A stretch of DNA of 40,733 nucleotides, taken from the IMG/VR virus record IMGVR_UViG_3300045988_138709. One strand, written 5' to 3'. Origin of the DNA: a virus. Its lineage: Duplodnaviria; Heunggongvirae; Uroviricota; Caudoviricetes. Position 1 is the first letter of the stretch, and every line of letters begins with the position of its first letter. Below, piece by piece: positions 8,332 through 16,519 of this stretch. The notes beneath the pieces are model-generated. The model saw only the letters and a program-made list of their open reading frames with translations, did no database searches and was not told where the DNA came from. Made by a program: the position numbers and the translations under genes.

Positions 8332-8822
8332 TCATGAGTCTTTTGAATGAAGTTCAGAAATTCATTGAAGCCCATCCGGGGTGTACTTCCGGAGACATTG
8401 CGGATGCTTTTGCAGGTTACTCACGGCAGCGCGTTCTGCAGTCAGCAAGCAAGTTACGTCAGAGTGGGCGTGTGGCTCACCGTTGTGAAGGAGATACACG
8501 CAGACATTTCCCACGCCTGACTGAGAGAGCGCAGGAGCCAGAACCACAACCAGTTCGTGAAACCAGACCTGTGCGCAATTTCTATGTCGGCACTAACGAT
8601 CCCCGGGTGATTTTGTGCCTGACCCGCCAGGCGGAAGAACTGGAGTCCAGGGGCTTATACCGTCGTGCTGCAACGGTGTGGATGGCGGCATTCCGTGAAA
8701 GCCACTCCCAGCCAGAACGAAACAATTTTCTGGCGCGTCGTGAGCAGTGTTTACGGAAAAGCAGCAAGCGCGCTGTATCGGGTGATGAGTGGTATCTGTC
8801 AGGGAATTACGTGGGGGCTTAA
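8328..8822 (+). CDS. Hypothetical protein with winged-helix-like N-terminus
   Basis: 164-aa ORF, ATGA-coupled to the O-like gene. No helicase-loader motifs, so not a P/DnaC-like protein. Confidence 0.55.
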   Translation: MIMSLLNEVQKFIEAHPGCTSGDIADAFAGYSRQRVLQSASKLRQSGRVAHRCEGDTRRHFPRLTERAQEPEPQPVRETRPVRNFYVGTNDPRVILCLTRQAEELESRGLYRRAATVWMAAFRESHSQPERNNFLARREQCLRKSSKRAVSGDEWYLSGNYVGA

Positions 8823-9475
8823 TGAGTAATAAATATTGCCAGGAGCTGGTGGAACTGCGGAACAAACCAGCCCATGAACTGAAGGAAGTGGGTGATCAGT
8901 GGCGCACGCCGGACAACATTTTCTGGGGAATTAATACCCTGTTTGGCCCGTTTGTTCTGGATCTGTTCACTGACGGTGATAACGCCAAATGTGCTGCGTA
9001 TTACACGGCGGAAGACAACGCGCTGGCGCATGACTGGTCAGAACGTCTTGCGGAGCTTAAAGGGGCTGCCTTTGGTAATCCCCCATACAGCCGCGCCAGT
9101 CAGCATGAGGGGCAATACATCACCGGCATGCGTTACATCATGAAGCATGCCAGTGCCATGCGTGATAAAGGCGGGCGCTATGTTTTCCTGATCAAAGCTG
9201 CCACCAGCGAAGTGTGGTGGCCGGAAGATGCAGACCATATTGCTTTTATTCGCGGGCGTATTGGTTTTGAACTGCCTGTCTGGTTTATCCCGAAAGACGA
9301 GAAGCAGGTGCCGACAGGAGCGTTCTTCGCTGGTGCTATTGCTGTTTTCGATAAGACCTGGAAGGGACCGGCAATCAGCTACATCGGGCGCGATGAACTT
9401 GAGACATGTGGTGAGGCGTTTCTGGCGCAGGTTCGCCAGCAGGCGGAAAAACTGATCAGGGAGATGGCGGCATGA
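8822..9475 (+). CDS. Phage DNA N6-adenine methyltransferase (Dam-like)
   Basis: Motif ...FGNPPYS... (NPPY catalytic motif); start moved to ATG (MSNKYCQELV...), overlapping the upstream stop. Confidence 0.8.
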   Translation: MSNKYCQELVELRNKPAHELKEVGDQWRTPDNIFWGINTLFGPFVLDLFTDGDNAKCAAYYTAEDNALAHDWSERLAELKGAAFGNPPYSRASQHEGQYITGMRYIMKHASAMRDKGGRYVFLIKAATSEVWWPEDADHIAFIRGRIGFELPVWFIPKDEKQVPTGAFFAGAIAVFDKTWKGPAISYIGRDELETCGEAFLAQVRQQAEKLIREMAA

Positions 9476-9798
9476 CGACATTAACTCAATGCCAGCAGCA
9501 GGTGCTGGATATGCTGATTTCTTATCAGAAAGAACGTGGCTTCCCGCCAACCAATCAGGAGGTGGCTACCATGCTGGGATACCGTTCAGTGAATGCAGCG
9601 GTGGAGCATCTTCGCGCACTGGAGAAAAAAGGCGTCATCACGATAAAGCGTGGCGTGGCACGGGGGATAACGCTTCATACCGCGGTGAAGGACGACGACA
9701 GCGAGGCGGTCGGGATTATCCGCTCACTGCTTGCCGGTGAGGAAAACGCCAGGCTGCGTGCAGCCCACTGGTTACATGAGAGGGGCCTGAAAGTATGA
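9472..9798 (+). CDS. LexA N-terminal DNA-binding-domain protein (no peptidase domain)
   Basis: 108 aa; winged-HTH resembling the LexA DNA-binding domain (...NQEVATMLGYRSVNAAVEHLRALEKKGVITI...); ATGA-coupled. Confidence 0.55.
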   Translation: MTTLTQCQQQVLDMLISYQKERGFPPTNQEVATMLGYRSVNAAVEHLRALEKKGVITIKRGVARGITLHTAVKDDDSEAVGIIRSLLAGEENARLRAAHWLHERGLKV

Positions 9799-11002: not shown

Positions 11003-11998
11003 GTGACCGTGAGAGCACTACTGACCCCTGAAATTGCCCCGCGTATGGGGATTGTATTGTTCAGGCCAGGTTCAGAGCTGATGCCCCTGTTTATGCAGGG
11101 GCGTGTCCTGCTGGAGCCTGAGCCGGAACGTTATTCATCTTTCGCCAGTGGTGCCGTTCCGGCGGCATCACAACCGCTGGCGGATGATCCTGCCGTTCGG
11201 GCCGTGTTCCGCAATGAGGCAGTGATCCGTCGTGCTGGTGGCGTGGAATGTCTTGAAAGCTGGTTACTTCGTGAAAAGGGCTGTCAGTGGCCTCATTCCG
11301 ACTGGCACAGCGAGAACATGACCACAATGCGGCACGCTCCGGGAGCAATTCGTCTGTGCTGGCACTGCGATAACCAGCTGCGTGACCAGTTCACGGAACG
11401 GCTGGAATCAATGGCAACGGATAACTGTGCCCGCTGGGTGTTGTCTGTTGTGCGTCGGGATCTCGGTTTTGATGATAGTCACGTTGTGACAATGCCGGAA
11501 CTGTGCTGGTGGCTGATTCGTAATGACCTGGCGGATGCCTTACCGGAAAGTGCAGCCCGTAAGGCACTGAGATTACCAAAGCCTATTGTGCCGTCTGTCA
11601 CCCGGGAAAGTGACCTTGTGCCTTCGGTTCCTGCCACCAGCATCATCCAGGATAAGGCGAAAAAGGTGCTGGCGCTGAAAGTGGATCCGGAGTCGCCGGA
11701 GTCTTTTATGTTACGCCCAAAACGTCGCCGCTGGGTTAATGAAAAGTACACGCGCTGGGTTAAGACACAGCCGTGTGCATGTTGTGGAAAGCCCGCTGAT
11801 GATCCCCACCACCTGATAGGTTACGGTCAGGGTGGAATGGGAACAAAAGCGCATGACCTTTTTGTGTTGCCTTTGTGCAGAAAGCATCACGACGAGCTGC
11901 ATGCGGATACCGTGGCATTTGAAGAAAAGTATGGCTCCCAGCTGGAGCTGATATTTCGTTTTATCGATCGCGCGCTGGCAATTGGCGTGCTGGCCTGA
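11003..11998 (+). CDS. DUF968-like protein with C-terminal Cys/His (HNH-like) cluster
   Basis: 331 aa; C-terminal ...CACCGKPADDPHHL...CRKHHDELH...; common in lambdoid nin regions (recall). Confidence 0.65.
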   Translation: MTVRALLTPEIAPRMGIVLFRPGSELMPLFMQGRVLLEPEPERYSSFASGAVPAASQPLADDPAVRAVFRNEAVIRRAGGVECLESWLLREKGCQWPHSDWHSENMTTMRHAPGAIRLCWHCDNQLRDQFTERLESMATDNCARWVLSVVRRDLGFDDSHVVTMPELCWWLIRNDLADALPESAARKALRLPKPIVPSVTRESDLVPSVPATSIIQDKAKKVLALKVDPESPESFMLRPKRRRWVNEKYTRWVKTQPCACCGKPADDPHHLIGYGQGGMGTKAHDLFVLPLCRKHHDELHADTVAFEEKYGSQLELIFRFIDRALAIGVLA

Positions 11999-12013
11999 TT
12001 TTTTCGGAGAAAG

Positions 12014-12382
12014 GTGATGCGTGATATTCAGATGGTTCTTGAGCGTTGGGGGGCATGGGCGGCGAGTGACAGTTCAGGAGTAGACTATTCGCCTATAGCT
12101 GCTGGGTTTAAGGGACTTCTTCCCTATACAAGCAAAACACGTCAGGCTTGTTCAGATAGTGATGCATTAATTATTGAAGGTTGTCTTGCTCGTCTAAAGC
12201 AAAAAAGGCCAGACGAACATTCGCTTCTTGTTGCCCATTACCTATACGGTATCTCTAAAAGAAAGCTCGCCAAAGCTCGTAAAAAGGATGAGAAACTAAT
12301 ACGCATTGAGATACAGATGGCTGAGGGGTTTATTGAAGGCTGTCTCTCAATGCTTGATCTTTGTTTGGAAATGGACCAATAG
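12014..12382 (+). CDS. Q: Late antiterminator Q (phage-82-type Q family)
   Basis: 122 aa; MRDIQMVLERWGAWAA...IAAGFKGL...CLARLK... strongly resembles 82-type Q proteins (recall). Confidence 0.85.
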   Translation: MMRDIQMVLERWGAWAASDSSGVDYSPIAAGFKGLLPYTSKTRQACSDSDALIIEGCLARLKQKRPDEHSLLVAHYLYGISKRKLAKARKKDEKLIRIEIQMAEGFIEGCLSMLDLCLEMDQ

Positions 12383-12405
12383 ACTACAAGAATAGCAACT
12401 GCCGC

Positions 12406-12828
12406 TCAGCTTTGCGGATCGGCAGTTTCTGATGGTGTAATGTTACGCGCAGATGTTTCAAGTATAGATTCCCTTCCGATTGATACCAAAATTTCGATTG
12501 TTCTTGCTTTAGCCTGCATCAATGTTGATTTTATTTCAGGACTTAAGTGGTCAGATCGTAACTGCTTCTCAATCTCAGCCAAATCACGCTTGCATTTTGC
12601 TCTTTTGGCTGCGTCTTCTGGAGATTCGAAACCATGTCTCGAAATGAACCAATTCATGACGTAAGTTAAAGTTGCCGCAACACCCGGTACTAATGCGTAG
12701 GCTACAGTTCGCCACACGCTATTAGGGTCGGTTAAAATCGCGCTAACAAGAACACTTAAAATTGCTCCCCAACCACCAGTTGAAAGGGTAGCTTTTCCTG
12801 TGCTTAGACCTTTAGTTTGAGAATTCAT
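12406..12828 (-). CDS. Cassette gene 3: predicted membrane protein (two N-terminal TM helices plus charged helical tail)
   Basis: 140 aa; hydrophobic segments GGWGAILSVLVSAIL and VAYALVPGVAATLTYVMNWFI; ATG start; ATGA-coupled to cassette gene 2. Confidence 0.6.
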   Translation of the reverse strand: MNSQTKGLSTGKATLSTGGWGAILSVLVSAILTDPNSVWRTVAYALVPGVAATLTYVMNWFISRHGFESPEDAAKRAKCKRDLAEIEKQLRSDHLSPEIKSTLMQAKARTIEILVSIGRESILETSARNITPSETADPQS

Positions 12829-13094
12829 TTTCGTTTTGAATTCTCCGCAATTGCCTCATCAATGAGGGTTGTTAGCATTTTTCCCTTTTTACTTGGAACT
12901 TTTATTACTAGCGTTTTGGTCACTCCGGAATCTTCATCGTGATATCGGAATTCGAAGACTTTTGTAGGGAATAGTCGACGCCAAAGCAAGGCTGACGCTG
13001 AATAGCAAAAACGACTAAAGGCAGGGATGATCATTATCACCCCTATCCAGAAGATCAGTTGTGCTATCTGCATGTTTAGTGTCACTTTTGTCAA
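12825..13094 (-). CDS. Cassette gene 2: small single-pass membrane protein
   Basis: 89-aa ORF (possible TTG start; in-frame ATG 7 codons in); TM segment IAQLIFWIGVIMIIPAF; stop overlaps gene 3 start. Confidence 0.5.
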   Translation of the reverse strand: MTKVTLNMQIAQLIFWIGVIMIIPAFSRFCYSASALLWRRLFPTKVFEFRYHDEDSGVTKTLVIKVPSKKGKMLTTLIDEAIAENSKRK

Positions 13095-13960
13095 GCCTCA
13101 GCAGGGCGTTTTCGTTTTACTTTGGTTATAGCATACTTGGTTGTGGCATTTCGCGCAGTGAAAGTTTTTATAGTTTTTAGCTCAACAACAAACAAATCTT
13201 CTTTTGTAAAACTGATGATTCCGTTTTGAACTTGGTGTATAAACAACTGATCTTCAAAGGTAACAGCATGCTCTTCGCCTAAATAATCGATTCTCCAACC
13301 CTTTGTACCCTCGAAGTTGATCTGTACGAATCTAACATTGACTTCTTCTACAGACTCTTCTTTTTCAAGTAGTGTGCCTCTAGGCAGCGGTTTGATCTCT
13401 TCGGTTTCACTTCCTTCAAGACGAACGACTTCTTCGCCTTCATCATTCAGCACCTTAAATACTGCTCCTTGTTTGCCGTCTAATGGTGCACGAACTACAT
13501 TCACAAGGGCATCACGGACTTCTGGATCTGTTACTAACTTAGCCACTGAGTCATGGCAAACAATTTCTTCCCCTTCAAGCTCAAGAACAGATTCTTCTGT
13601 TCCTGCCCGTTTTGTTACCGAAATTACTTTCTTGCTGCCCAGTTGGCGGATTAGTGATAATGCTGGAGCTCCAATAGTAGCCCCGGCTATCCCTGTTAGG
13701 CCAATCACTTTTGCTACGTCGACGGCATGAGGAACAAGCTCCATCATCGTATAGGATACGCCGAGTGATCCCGCTTCAGCTGGATTAGTAACCATTAACT
13801 TAACGGTTTGTTGGCCGTCATTAAGTCTTTTATCAGCTGCTGATATTAAATCTGCCATCGAACCTATGGAAATGCTTAATGTTTTGGCATCAATTTTATG
13901 CTGTGCTAATTCATTATCCTCTGCATCGTAGAAGATCTGAAAAGAAGTTGTTTTAGTCAC
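13091..13960 (-). CDS. Cassette gene 1: hypothetical 289-aa protein (acidic linker, one hydrophobic segment)
   Basis: Long ORF with probable GTG start; no catalytic motif recognised; hydrophobic stretch VAKVIGLTGIAGATIGAPALSLI; stop overlaps gene 2 start. Confidence 0.6.
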   Translation of the reverse strand: MTKTTSFQIFYDAEDNELAQHKIDAKTLSISIGSMADLISAADKRLNDGQQTVKLMVTNPAEAGSLGVSYTMMELVPHAVDVAKVIGLTGIAGATIGAPALSLIRQLGSKKVISVTKRAGTEESVLELEGEEIVCHDSVAKLVTDPEVRDALVNVVRAPLDGKQGAVFKVLNDEGEEVVRLEGSETEEIKPLPRGTLLEKEESVEEVNVRFVQINFEGTKGWRIDYLGEEHAVTFEDQLFIHQVQNGIISFTKEDLFVVELKTIKTFTARNATTKYAITKVKRKRPAEA

Positions 13961-14082
13961 TCTTTGCTCGCTATGTCTTGATTTTTTTCCACAAAATACC
14001 TTTTTTTGGTGTAAAAAACATTATCGCGGTCCGCAAAAATTGCGTTACTGTGTTAAGAGTGATTACTTCGTCACACAGCTTA

Positions 14083-14108
14083 AACCCGCCGTCGAGCGGG
14101 TTTTTTTA
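14083..14108 (+). terminator. Intrinsic terminator (tR'-like) downstream of Q
   Basis: AACCCGC-CGTCGA-GCGGGTT followed by a T7 run. Confidence 0.5.
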
Positions 14109-14230
14109 TACCTGTAAACCTGGTGCAGTACGGTAAACACGCTGGTGGTCGTGAATACTGACTTTTTATCTTGCTGGCTTTTTAGACAAGAGTTATTGGT
14201 ATGTCATGTTAACCATGAAGGTAAAAAGAC

Positions 14231-14425
14231 ATGCTAAAACAGCAAGATATGACAGAAACGGCGAAAGTTGTTTTTAATGAATTAAACGGCAAACCGGCAA
14301 CAGTCGGGGAGATAGCACAAAACACATACCTTTCACGCGAACGCTGTCAGTTAATACTGACCCAGCTGGTTATGGCGGGGCTGGCAGATTACCAGTTCGG
14401 CTGTTACAGACGCCTTCAGCAATGA
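14231..14425 (+). CDS. Small hypothetical protein (possible winged-helix)
   Basis: 64-aa ORF with ATG and AAGGTAAAAAG upstream; precedes the methyltransferase. Confidence 0.4.
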   Translation: MLKQQDMTETAKVVFNELNGKPATVGEIAQNTYLSRERCQLILTQLVMAGLADYQFGCYRRLQQ

Positions 14426-14574
14426 AGGGCTTTTAATTTGTGAAAATGGGCGGCTGGTGGGTGTTGGTAGCACCTGCCAGCCATTCGCTCATGCTTACTG
14501 GTCACAAGCGAACCATGGCCCACTGCTTTAGCGCAAAAGCAGAGTGAGCCTACCAGAGTTACGCTTACTGATCC

Positions 14575-15627
14575 ATGAAAAATACTGTAAAAATAAACAG
14601 TGTTGATTTAATCAACGCTGATTGCCTGCATTTTATTCAGTCCCTGCCTGATGACTCCATTGATCTGATTGTTACCGATCCGCCGTACTTCAAAGTGAAG
14701 CCCAACGGCTGGGACAATCAGTGGAAAGGGGACGAAGATTACCTGAAGTGGCTGGACCACTGTCTGGCCCAGTTCTGGCGGGTACTGAAACCAGCCGGAA
14801 GCCTTTACCTGTTCTGTGGACATCGCCTGGCATCTGATATCGAGATCATGATGCGTGAACGTTTCAACGTTCTTAACCATATCATCTGGGCGAAGCCGTC
14901 CGGACGATGGAACGGGTGTAATAAAGAAAGCCTGCGGGCATATTTCCCCGCTACAGAGCGCGTTCTGTTTGCTGAACATTACCAGGGGCCATATCGCGGC
15001 AAAAGTGACGATTATGCGGCAAAAGAAAGGGAACTCAAACAGCACATAATGGCACCGCTGATTTCGTATTTCAGGGATGCTCGTGCCGAACTGGGTATAA
15101 CGGCAAAACAGATTGCCGAAGCCACTGGTAAGAAAAATATGGTTTCCCACTGGTTTGGTGCCAGTCAGTGGCAGTTGCCGAATGAGGCTGACTACCGGAA
15201 GTTGCAGGCACTGTTTTCCCGTATAGCGGCAGATAAATTTCAGGAACAACAACTGGAACAACCACACCACCAGCTGGTGGCATCTTATGATTCACTGAAT
15301 CGCAAATATTCTGAATTGCTGGATGAGTTTAAAACTCTCCGGCGCTATTTCTCCGTATCAGTTTCCGTGCCTTATACCGACGTCTGGACGCATAAACCCG
15401 TTCAGTTCTACCCGGGTAAACATCCGTGTGAGAAGCCTGCGGATATGCTCCGGCAAATAATCAGTGCCAGTAGTCGACAAGGCGATCTGGTTGCTGATTT
15501 CTTTATGGGATCCGGTTCCACAATAAAAGCGGCAATGGCGCTGGGGCGTCGGGCGTTAGGTGTTGAACTTGAGTCAGAGCGGTTTAATCAGACGGTGAAA
15601 GAGGTAAGTGAACTGGTGGGGAAATAA
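14575..15627 (+). CDS. DNA methyltransferase (N6-adenine/N4-cytosine class; DPPY then FxGSGS order)
   Basis: 350 aa; N-terminal ...LIVTDPPYF... and C-terminal ...DFFMGSGST...; no adjacent restriction endonuclease seen. Confidence 0.85.
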   Translation: MKNTVKINSVDLINADCLHFIQSLPDDSIDLIVTDPPYFKVKPNGWDNQWKGDEDYLKWLDHCLAQFWRVLKPAGSLYLFCGHRLASDIEIMMRERFNVLNHIIWAKPSGRWNGCNKESLRAYFPATERVLFAEHYQGPYRGKSDDYAAKERELKQHIMAPLISYFRDARAELGITAKQIAEATGKKNMVSHWFGASQWQLPNEADYRKLQALFSRIAADKFQEQQLEQPHHQLVASYDSLNRKYSELLDEFKTLRRYFSVSVSVPYTDVWTHKPVQFYPGKHPCEKPADMLRQIISASSRQGDLVADFFMGSGSTIKAAMALGRRALGVELESERFNQTVKEVSELVGK

Positions 15628-15634
15628 TTCTGGT

Positions 15635-15660
15635 GGCCACGTTGCGTGGCCTTTTTATTT
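15635..15660 (+). terminator. Intrinsic terminator between methyltransferase and holin
   Basis: GGCCACG-TTG-CGTGGCC followed by TTTTTATTT. Confidence 0.55.
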
Positions 15661-15703
15661 CCAACACAGCACCCGCAAATATCGCGAGGTGAGAGATGAC
15701 GAA

Positions 15704-16039
15704 ATGCCTCATAACCCAAATACCTGGCCGGACTGGCTGGAGTTGTTTCAGAGCTGGTGGCGTGGAGATACGCCGCTGGGCGCAGTGATTATGTCGATTG
15801 TTATGGCTGGTTTGCGTATTGCCTATTTTGGTGGTGGTGGCGGCTGGAAACGAAAAACACTCGAAATTTTGCTCTGTGGCGCTCTGACGCTGACCTTTGC
15901 ATCCGCTCTTGAGTATGTCGGATGGCCTAAATCGCTTTCTGTTGCCATTGGTGGTGGGGTGGGGCTGATCGGGGTCGATGCAATTCGTGGGGCTGCAATG
16001 CGAGTAATCGGTAATAAGTTTGGTAGTTCTAAGGAGTAA
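15704..16039 (+). CDS. Holin (three predicted TM segments)
   Basis: Start at ATG with GAGGTGAG RBS, downstream of the terminator; hydrophobic segments LGAVIMSIVMAGLRIAYF, TLEILLCGALTLTFASALEYV and LSVAIGGGVGLIGV; directly precedes the endolysin. Confidence 0.7.
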   Translation: MPHNPNTWPDWLELFQSWWRGDTPLGAVIMSIVMAGLRIAYFGGGGGWKRKTLEILLCGALTLTFASALEYVGWPKSLSVAIGGGVGLIGVDAIRGAAMRVIGNKFGSSKE

Positions 16040-16042
16040 TTT

Positions 16043-16519
16043 ATGCAGGTACTAAATTCCCAGCGTAAAGCTTTCCTTGATATGGTGGCTTGGTCAGAAG
16101 GAACGGATAACGGACGACAACCGACACGTAACCACGGTTATGACGTTATTGTCGGTGGTGAACTCTTCACTGATTACTCCGATCACCCTCGCAAACTTGT
16201 CACGCTAAACCCGAAACTCAAGTCAACAGCCGCCGGACGTTACCAGCTTCTTTCACGCTGGTGGGATGCTTACCGTAAACAGCTTGGCCTGAAAGATTTT
16301 TCTCCAGAAAGCCAGGACGCTGTAGCTCTGCAGCAGATTAAAGAGCGTGGCGCTTTACCGATGATTGACCGTGGCAATATTCGTCAGGCAATCGACCGTT
16401 GCAGCAATATCTGGGCGTCGTTACCTGGTGCAGGTTATGGTCAGTATGAACATAAAATCAGTGACCTGATTGCACGGTTTGAAGAGGCTGGTGGGGTGGT
16501 AAATGAAGTTGAGCTATAA
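16043..16519 (+). CDS. R: Endolysin, lambda R-type lytic transglycosylase
   Basis: 158 aa; near-collinear with lambda R (...NSQRKAFLDMVAWSEGTDNGRQPTRNHGYDVIVGGELFTDYSDHPRKLVTLNPKLKSTAAGRYQLL...), from recall. Confidence 0.9.
   Translation: MQVLNSQRKAFLDMVAWSEGTDNGRQPTRNHGYDVIVGGELFTDYSDHPRKLVTLNPKLKSTAAGRYQLLSRWWDAYRKQLGLKDFSPESQDAVALQQIKERGALPMIDRGNIRQAIDRCSNIWASLPGAGYGQYEHKISDLIARFEEAGGVVNEVEL

Follow-up and report, generated by a model that had tools for sequence, protein, structure and literature searches.

A conserved structured RNA, possibly a translational switch, in front of an M.EcoGII-family adenine methyltransferase gene of a lambdoid prophage

How can a phage express safely an enzyme that methylates adenine whatever its context? 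The question is raised by a gene for an N6-adenine DNA methyltransferase in IMG/VR virus record IMGVR_UViG_3300045988_138709, a stretch of 40,733 nucleotides (the window) that corresponds to a lambdoid, SfV-like prophage. Its product resembles M.EcoGII from Escherichia coli O104:H4, which methylates adenine in any context, in double-stranded DNA, single-stranded DNA and RNA; expression of M.EcoGII slows growth, and the prophage copy is silent during normal growth (PMC5778455). Although M.EcoGII is much used as a reagent (chromatin footprinting, MadID, tools for N6-methyladenine, m6A, in RNA), its biology in nature, like its regulation, is essentially undescribed. Here we describe a structured leader RNA located just upstream of the methyltransferase gene, which is new with respect to Rfam and to the literature searched, and which is strictly linked to genes of the M.EcoGII type. 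The explanation that we consider probable is that of a late-expressed enzyme of this family placed behind a switchable RNA leader. The features discussed are collected in Table 1.

The identity of the enzyme comes first. A preliminary description of the locus, made from the letters of the DNA, had noted a 64-aa open reading frame (ORF) followed by an orphan methyltransferase gene in which DPPY precedes FxGSGS, and this is indeed what is found there. Both catalytic motifs are intact: DPPY makes residues 35–38 (nt 14677–14688), FxGxG is F310-M-G-S-G314 (nt 15502–15516). The order of the motifs, IV, then the target-recognition domain (TRD), here with a helix-turn-helix (HTH), then I, is that of the beta class, and classification by profile agrees (Pfam N6_N4_Mtase, E=8.8e-42, spanning residues 29–341; PADLOC MTase_II, E=3e-151). 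Over its full length, and with two gaps, the protein is 81% identical to M.EcoGII. It is 88% identical, again over its full length, to Anc291, a reconstructed ancestor that is experimentally active (PMC11551740, the Table S1 of which provided both sequences). Identity reaches 97.7% with SfV orf48, and is 81% with the enzyme encoded at the same genomic position by 1720a-02, a phage named as bearing an enzyme very similar to M.EcoGII (PMC5778455). Among enzymes of proven site specificity the nearest is M.PflMI, whose identity with M.EcoGII is only 27%. On such resemblance the enzyme very probably belongs to the M.EcoGI/II clade, and we think it likely, with somewhat less assurance, that this ortholog is a non-specific adenine methyltransferase.

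The preliminary description had favoured another view, that of a sequence-specific orphan enzyme writing a defined motif in the lysogen, to the end of epigenetic control or of layered anti-restriction, with the 64-aa ORF as a possible controller akin to the C proteins of restriction systems. The catalytic motifs are intact and a restriction endonuclease is absent, as this view would have it: no nuclease gene adjoins the methyltransferase gene, which has Q and three antisense ORFs on one side, holin and endolysin on the other. The small protein has, besides, a fold of DNA-binding type, and its gene stands alongside that of the methyltransferase in 26 of 49 loci. What makes this view very unlikely is the identity of 81–88% with enzymes that are experimentally non-specific, the silence of the family in lysogens (PMC5778455) together with the position of the gene behind the tR' terminator, and the small protein itself, predicted to be a winged helix and not an Xre-type (HTH_3) protein, and dispensable in many relatives; nor is there an endonuclease for it to control. 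A new methylated motif is not expected, as the clade methylates adenine in any context, and a gene behind tR' is an unlikely agent of epigenetic control in the lysogen. Because M.EcoGII is silent in lysogens (PMC5778455) and has no motif, the methylome comparison between lysogen and cured strain that had been proposed would yield a false negative. More generally, lysogen methylomes will not expose genes of the M.EcoGII type, and the annotations 'site-specific DNA-methyltransferase' or 'DNA adenine methylase' carried by such genes need correcting. The other parts of the preliminary description stood: the gene is an orphan with a terminator on either side, the phage has a second methyltransferase gene unrelated to it, and anti-restriction is the accepted role for the M.EcoGII family.

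Since such an enzyme is toxic, a further layer of control at the level of the messenger might be anticipated. The spacer that separates the small ORF from the methyltransferase gene, 150 nt long in the window and 138–153 nt in phages of E. coli, Citrobacter, Hafnia and Morganella, is conserved above the flanking coding DNA, and is the most conserved element at the locus. It holds invariant blocks (AAUGGGCGG, CCAGCCAU, GGCCCA, AAAGC and GAGCCUA) among stems that are visibly compensatory. RNAalifold run on a plain MAFFT alignment of the divergent leaders misaligned the stems and gave no fold; a covariance model, seeded with three near-identical copies and a hand-drawn structure, was used instead. 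The set searched with covariance models comprised 94 sources and 389 kb, namely the window, 14 loci from phage records, and 79 loci from a scan of a genome collection with one genome per species.

The outcome is a domain of several helices with invariant junction nucleotides. In an alignment of 25 sequences, 92.4% of the cells are paired and 26 of the 34 pairs have changed on both sides in a compensatory manner. The covariation score is 0.439, against 0.175 in shuffles, none of 500 reaching the observed value, and pairing falls to 27–45% when the partners are slid by one to three columns. Applied to the covariance-model alignment, RNAalifold returns the same fold, with 33 pairs, 25 of them compensatory. 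The second-generation model, R2, has 32 matches at E<0.1, all on the plus strand, and exactly one in the window. Because G-U pairs are frequent, the structure exists in the sense transcript only; the minus strand never scores more than 18 bits, whereas scores on the plus strand reach 158 bits. The structure of the leader RNA is real, and of this we are highly confident. Rfam 15 has no match in 14436–14574 at E≤5, nor in six divergent loci at E≤1; ARAGORN, together with Rfam at the gathering threshold, gives only the tRNA-Thr at 115–190, with no tRNA or known RNA in the spacer; RefSeq has no annotation at the leader, and full-text literature searches found no earlier description of the motif.

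Some details of the fold, and some candidate identities, were considered and set aside. A hairpin P5 (GUGAGC/GCUUAC), competitor of P4, varies in register among lineages. A tertiary pairing of J2/1 (UUC) with J0/4 (GAA) was dropped, its covariation being inconsistent. The anti-small-RNAs AgvB and AsxR of Stx phages are a different element, made of convergent small RNAs of 51–60 nt downstream of morons.

Could the spacer be kept for a reason that lies in the DNA or in coding, whether as a promoter or operator, through a small protein that it encodes, or because the copies share a recent ancestor? An invariant AUG/GUG in P1 does open a frame of 33 codons in the window, and identity exceeds 95% among many of the E. 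coli copies. Yet that frame is interrupted by stops and frameshifts in most homologs, which disposes of a small protein started there; the compensatory and G-U substitutions of the stems work on the plus strand only; the structure persists where the methyltransferases are only 48–60% identical; and no sigma-70-like promoter was detected. An explanation at the DNA or coding level is thus largely refuted, and we regard it as most improbable.

The second property of the leader is its company. It is found across phages of Enterobacterales, Vibrio and Aeromonas, and it lies 5' of the methyltransferase gene also in N15, phiKO2, Serratia OS31 and Vibrio VHML, those where the enzyme has diverged to 48–60% identity. 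All 32 R2 matches lie just 5' of the methyltransferase gene, or of a Com-like ORF placed ahead of that gene. They end 10–22 nt before the methyltransferase start, save in Aeromonas phiARM81ld and two Vibrio genomes, where the motif ends 11–12 nt before an ORF for a zinc ribbon like Com of phage Mu (PF10122), which itself precedes or overlaps the methyltransferase gene. Association with several gene families was looked for in this set, and only the methyltransferase, or com plus the methyltransferase, was found. A scan of IMG/VR that started from the motif gave 121 matches with an exact pattern, which is strict and samples mainly close relatives: the methyltransferase follows in 118, with an identical offset in 114. 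Two of the others run off contig ends and one (L287) is a chance match in a GC-rich coding sequence, so that every true match that can be evaluated (118/118) has the methyltransferase after it. Of 5426 complete E. coli genomes, 1264 (~23%) have leader and methyltransferase together, with up to eight copies per genome; if our reading is true, this RNA is among the commonest unannotated structured RNAs of E. coli prophages.

A census of 49 methyltransferase loci reveals what else may stand upstream. Motif and winged-helix ORF occur together in 16 loci, the motif alone in 12, and the motif with a Com-like ORF in three; ten loci (Xenorhabdus, Photorhabdus, Proteus hauseri) have the winged-helix ORF with a shortened leader, one has a Com-like ORF alone, and seven have neither. 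Three things appear to be new: a bistability of the leader supported by covariation, its strict linkage to genes of the M.EcoGII type, and a mosaic of alternative regulators in front of the gene (a winged helix, Com, or both layers). In nine Xenorhabdus and Photorhabdus loci (L022, L023, L025, L027, L028, L030, L031, L047 and L055) the leader is cut to ~95 nt, at about 1405–1500 of the locus; these loci have kept the winged-helix ORF, and the short form of the leader (GGUGAAAUGGGCGGC...GCCAGCCUUUCACC), which retains the 5' half of the motif, is missed by the covariance models. The Com-like ORFs (PF10122) are at L012:1362–1577, L038:1352–1468, L039:1331–1441 and L049:1326–1553, these loci being Aeromonas phiARM81ld, two Vibrio genomes and a metagenome-assembled genome of Cellvibrionaceae; in all of them com precedes or overlaps a methyltransferase gene of the M.EcoGII family, and in the first three the RNA motif is upstream of com.

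How might the leader act? The methyltransferase start codon has no Shine–Dalgarno sequence; the bases before it are CUUACUGAUCCAUG, and UGAUCYAUG at the start is conserved across genera. A long-range helix, which we term anti-TIR (for translation-initiation region), can form between a segment that overlaps the 3' strand of P0 and positions −12 to −1 of the methyltransferase AUG. P0 and this helix use the same nucleotides, and are therefore mutually exclusive. When the leader was folded with 36 nt of coding sequence in 21 homologs, the anti-TIR helix was present in the minimum free energy fold of most. In a third covariance model, built on the alternative fold, nine well-aligned pairs were scored: 90.6% of cells are paired, seven of the nine pairs have changed on both sides, and none of 500 shuffles is as high, while slid controls give 19–48% pairing. 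Compensatory examples are AAGC/GCUU in E. coli, GGA/UCC in Proteus and GAG/CUC in Ewingella. For the RNA of the window, the lowest predicted energy, −65.0 kcal/mol, belongs to the anti-TIR state, whose pairs have probabilities of 0.6–0.9; the P0 state lies at −61.7 kcal/mol, a penalty of 3.3 kcal/mol when P0 is enforced. Folded by themselves, the first 75 nt adopt the P0 state. Such modelling suggests, with our confidence evenly divided, a translational switch that is OFF by default and has a co-transcriptional window of decision.

The surroundings of the start codon show other features. A hairpin, ACUGU-N8-ACAGU, lies just past it at 14583–14604 (codons 4–9 of the methyltransferase gene), its synonymous positions being conserved in most homologs; it could be a further element controlling how translation is initiated. 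A GATC (Dam) site at 14569–14572 is found 2–5 nt before the ATG in most homologs, and in many of them the 3' strand of P0 contains another GATC. The phage has its own early Dam-like methyltransferase, and coincidence is possible. An upstream ORF that would end at the conserved UGA of UGAUCYAUG was considered and rejected, for it has no in-frame start codon.

These elements may be assembled into the following scheme. The locus would be an insert in the late operon, at the position occupied by stx in Stx phages, encoding a sequence-non-specific N6-adenine methyltransferase. In the lysogen, transcripts from pR' would halt at tR', and the enzyme, by virtue of this position, would be silent, as M.EcoGII is in its own prophage. 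After induction, RNA polymerase modified by Q would pass tR', then the weak hairpin (14413) and the closing terminator (15635), and read-through would transcribe the winged-helix ORF, the leader and the methyltransferase gene along with the lysis and morphogenesis genes. The enzyme would then methylate most adenines in the DNA of the progeny and shield it broadly from m6A-sensitive restriction when the next host is entered, a role that we infer from the characterised homolog. On the messenger, the ON fold would be that in which the closing stem P0 is formed and the start region free; the OFF fold, predicted to be the ground state, would engage P0's 3' strand with the bases at −12 to −1 from the start codon. 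Some factor would stabilise P0, or trap it kinetically, permitting translation. Candidates are the co-encoded winged-helix protein, S-adenosylmethionine (SAM) or S-adenosylhomocysteine (SAH), and the methyltransferase itself. That the leader might represent a new class of effector-responsive translational switch (a riboswitch, or autoregulation responding to m6A or to a protein), timing the methylase within the lytic cycle, is offered tentatively, as something that may well turn out otherwise.

Which factor, if any? As methylating every adenine drains the SAM pool, SAM or SAH would be the most logical ligands of a metabolite riboswitch, the ligand stabilising P0 and so opening the start. The conserved multi-helix domain with its invariant junctions is of the kind that one would look for; the closing helix has a 3' strand that can pair instead with the translation start; no common protein partner is needed, 12 loci having the motif alone; and the element is present with unrelated regulators of late transcription (lambdoid phages, N15, VHML). 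An RNA tied to one gene family is, however, more typical of autoregulatory or protein-binding leaders, and the motif has no likeness to any SAM or SAH class in Rfam; we hold this possibility to be unlikely. The same exclusive linkage to one gene speaks for an operator responsive to a protein, either activated by the winged-helix protein or another protein of phage or host, or subject to feedback by the methyltransferase through binding or m6A. The winged-helix ORF is immediately upstream in lambdoid phages, and present, if displaced, in N15-like phages; M.EcoGII methylates RNA (PMC5778455); and Com, a proven RNA-binding activator of translation, fills the same regulatory niche in relatives. 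Against this stand the 12 motif-bearing loci that have no winged-helix ORF, because of which the winged-helix protein cannot be the universal effector, and the Com-bearing loci, where the motif is upstream of com instead of being replaced by it. A protein-responsive operator is doubtful too, if less so than a riboswitch. What likelihood these two leave goes to purely kinetic or constitutive attenuation.

The late-expressed enzyme behind a switchable leader, which we continue to prefer, has to reckon with several observations that weigh against it. Nineteen per cent of the residues differ from those of M.EcoGII, some of them in the TRD. The full motif is lacking in 17 of the 49 loci (the ten with a shortened leader and the seven with none), so that the leader is not indispensable, and the accessory ORF is itself missing from 12 loci that bear the motif. 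Hafnia yong2, phiKO2 and N15 do not clearly have the anti-TIR helix, and the unpaired probability of their initiation region is 0.60–0.69. A sigma-70 consensus scan reveals no canonical pR' or internal promoter. Finally, both structural alignments were fitted to the structures under test, and the energies are nearest-neighbour estimates.

Table 1. Coordinates of the main features in the window (nt; arms of paired regions are separated by a slash)
Feature	Position	Strand	Basis or remark
Dam-like phage N6-adenine methyltransferase (second methyltransferase), early region	8789–9475	+	NCBIfam TIGR01712, E=3e-76
Antiterminator Q, 122 aa	12014–12382	+	Pfam Phage_antitermQ, E=3e-53
Candidate Q-specific late promoter pR'/qut region	14013–14081	+	inferred from sharing by Q type; no canonical −35/−10 in the sigma-70 scan
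tR'-like intrinsic terminator	14082–14110 (stem 14082–14103 + T-run)	+	8-bp GC-rich stem, T7 run
Stand-alone winged-helix protein, 64 aa, ATG start, equivalent of SfV orf47	14231–14425	+	PHROG 331
Weak terminator-like hairpin	14413–14438 (stem 14413–14428)	+	overlaps stop of the small ORF, immediately 5' of the RNA motif
Structured leader RNA core, ~120 nt	14436–14558	+	covariance models R1, R2
P0	14438–14443 / 14502–14507		
P1	14446–14451 / 14487–14492		
P2	14452–14463 / 14471–14482		
P4	14517–14519 / 14548–14550		
P3	14523–14529 / 14536–14542		
Anti-TIR long-range helix (alternative fold)	14500–14574	+	14500–14509 (GGUCACAAGC) pairs with 14563–14574 (GCUUACUGAUCC)
M.EcoGII-family beta-class N6-adenine DNA methyltransferase, 350 aa	14575–15627	+	motifs, Pfam, full-length identity
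Module-closing intrinsic terminator, upstream of holin S	15635–15661 (stem 15635–15651 + T-run)	+	
Lysis cassette	holin S 15704–16039; endolysin 16043–16519; spanins		

Late-only, Q-dependent transcription of the module would follow from the order of the genes: the methyltransferase gene is downstream of tR', and its transcription should therefore need antitermination by Q. The order found in the window, Q, tR', module, terminator, holin, is also that of SfV, mEp460, phiP27, 1720a-02, the Stx2c phages, N15 and phiKO2, and of Citrobacter, Hafnia and Morganella phages. The terminators at both ends of the module, which had been proposed from the start, are strong (ΔG −12.0 kcal/mol, z −3.0 against shuffles, for the tR'-like one; −12.5 kcal/mol, z −3.3, for that which closes the module), and both are annotated as terminators in the SfV record, which is 95.6% identical to this stretch at the nucleotide level. 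The region just before tR' is common only to phages with the same type of Q (1720a-02, phiP27), and diverges in SfV and mEp460, which have another type, up to the terminator that all share; because this pattern of sharing follows the type of Q, we read the region as a Q-specific pR'/qut. The weak hairpin ahead of the RNA motif (ΔG −7.8 kcal/mol, z −1.7) has a strong terminator as its counterpart in relatives such as N15, phiKO2, L012, L021, L026, L036 and L040. An RNA initiated at pR' and terminated at tR' would be roughly 40 nt long, and would correspond to the 6S RNA of lambda and to StxS. Between tR' and the small ORF, at ~14171–14200, a block TTGCTG...CAGAGTTA shows no variation among E. 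coli, Citrobacter, Hafnia, Morganella, Xenorhabdus and Proteus; it is neither a good sigma-70 promoter nor a palindrome. Weak Rfam matches at 14019–14109 (Trp leader, 22 bits; isrK, 17 bits; anti-hemB) were discarded, as they probably reflect only the tR' hairpin.

The 64-aa ORF deserves a comment of its own. It matches PHROG 331 (E=6e-35) and has 320 homologs, all in Enterobacterales, known at NCBI as 'TrmB family transcriptional regulator'. Its AlphaFold2 model, a confident one (pLDDT 89), has the H-H-H-beta-beta topology of a winged helix. Two alleles, ~50% identical, recombine independently of the methyltransferase gene, and phages of the N15 type have a remote homolog, gp51 (25–27% identity), placed upstream of the late promoter and not downstream. 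Our best guess is that of an accessory regulator that binds nucleic acids.

As to the wider setting, the prophage is integrated beside the tRNA-Thr gene, with its integrase gene at 205–1368, and the stretch from Q to holin (11900–16100 compared) is 99.8% identical to a prophage of E. coli W12-1. The methyltransferase module sits between Q and the lysis cassette. Q is 74% identical to that of 1720a-02 and matches distantly the Q21 structures 6P18 and 6JNX. Between the Q stop and the pR'/qut region, at 12406–13960 on the minus strand, three antisense ORFs (140, 89 and 289 aa) have been inserted. The 289-aa product has matches in NCBIfam (LAPAL_fam, E=1e-59), in PADLOC (PDC-S42, a candidate defence system, E=8e-33) and in PHROG 3243. 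Missing from SfV, 1720a-02, phiP27 and mEp460, and found in at least 30 E. coli genomes, this insert is likely a defence moron, which puts 1.6 kb between Q and its target promoter. The second methyltransferase, the Dam-like enzyme of the early region, is well supported (TIGR01712, 254.5 bits for a cutoff of 97). It is directly followed, as in SfV and 1720a-02, by a 108-aa LexA-like ORF (9472–9798) limited to the N-terminal DNA-binding part (TIGR00498, E=1e-19).

What does this mean for those who use, or look for, such systems? A bistable leader would be a testable handle on the way phages express safely a lethal all-adenine methylase, and the RNA is a well-supported structured candidate outside Rfam with which to hunt for a ligand or a protein. 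Relatives of the enzyme occur in roughly one of every four complete E. coli genomes; Stx phages, which have the module directly upstream of stx, are among their carriers.

It remains to place the locus among known systems. With M.EcoGII and M.EcoGI, from prophages of E. coli O104:H4 C227-11 (Murray et al., 2018; PMC5778455), the enzyme shares DPPY, a TRD of HTH type with a charged linker, FxGxG, and a length of 349–350 aa, and all are prophage-borne orphans, at 81% identity; that publication deals with the protein, without an upstream leader RNA or small ORF. The pair made of the winged-helix ORF and the methyltransferase gene is in GenBank many times already (orf47/orf48 in SfV, L23/L24 in phiP27, and others). 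SfV, mEp460, cdtI, phiP27, 1720a-02 and the Stx2c and Stx2a phages have the same succession of winged-helix ORF, 150-nt spacer and methyltransferase gene, likewise found between tR' and the lysis or stx genes. SfV differs by its type of Q and, with 1720a-02, phiP27 and mEp460, by the absence of the antisense insert. The C proteins of type II restriction–modification systems resemble the present case in that a small protein of DNA-binding type is encoded just upstream of a modification gene; they differ from it by their Xre-type HTH, where here we have a predicted winged helix, no endonuclease, a late operon, and many relatives devoid of the ORF.

Translational riboswitches (the SAM-II, SAM-III or preQ1 platforms, for example) offer a parallel of another sort, since there, too, the 3' strand of a closing helix can pair with the initiation region, and both alternatives are conserved. 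The leader of the window differs from them in lying outside Rfam, in being tied to one gene family, and in that it would sequester the segment directly before the AUG and not a Shine–Dalgarno sequence. The parallel with com-mom of phage Mu bears on the logic of the whole, that of a late, host-toxic, broad-spectrum enzyme of DNA modification the translation of which is, or in the window would be, gated on its messenger. The parts are not the same: the window has no Com, and its upstream protein is a predicted winged helix instead of a zinc ribbon; a single Com-binding hairpin in Mu contrasts with a multi-helix domain of 120 nt; and Mom is an acetamido-transferase, Hia5 an alpha-class methyltransferase, while the enzyme of the window is of the beta class. 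Com is nonetheless found before the unrelated non-specific methyltransferases Hia5 and Hin1523, Nme1821 being Com-linked as well (PMC3299994). Since Com thus precedes methyltransferases of both kinds, and with com-mom of Mu as the paradigm, post-transcriptional gating is a device that recurs among promiscuous DNA modifiers.

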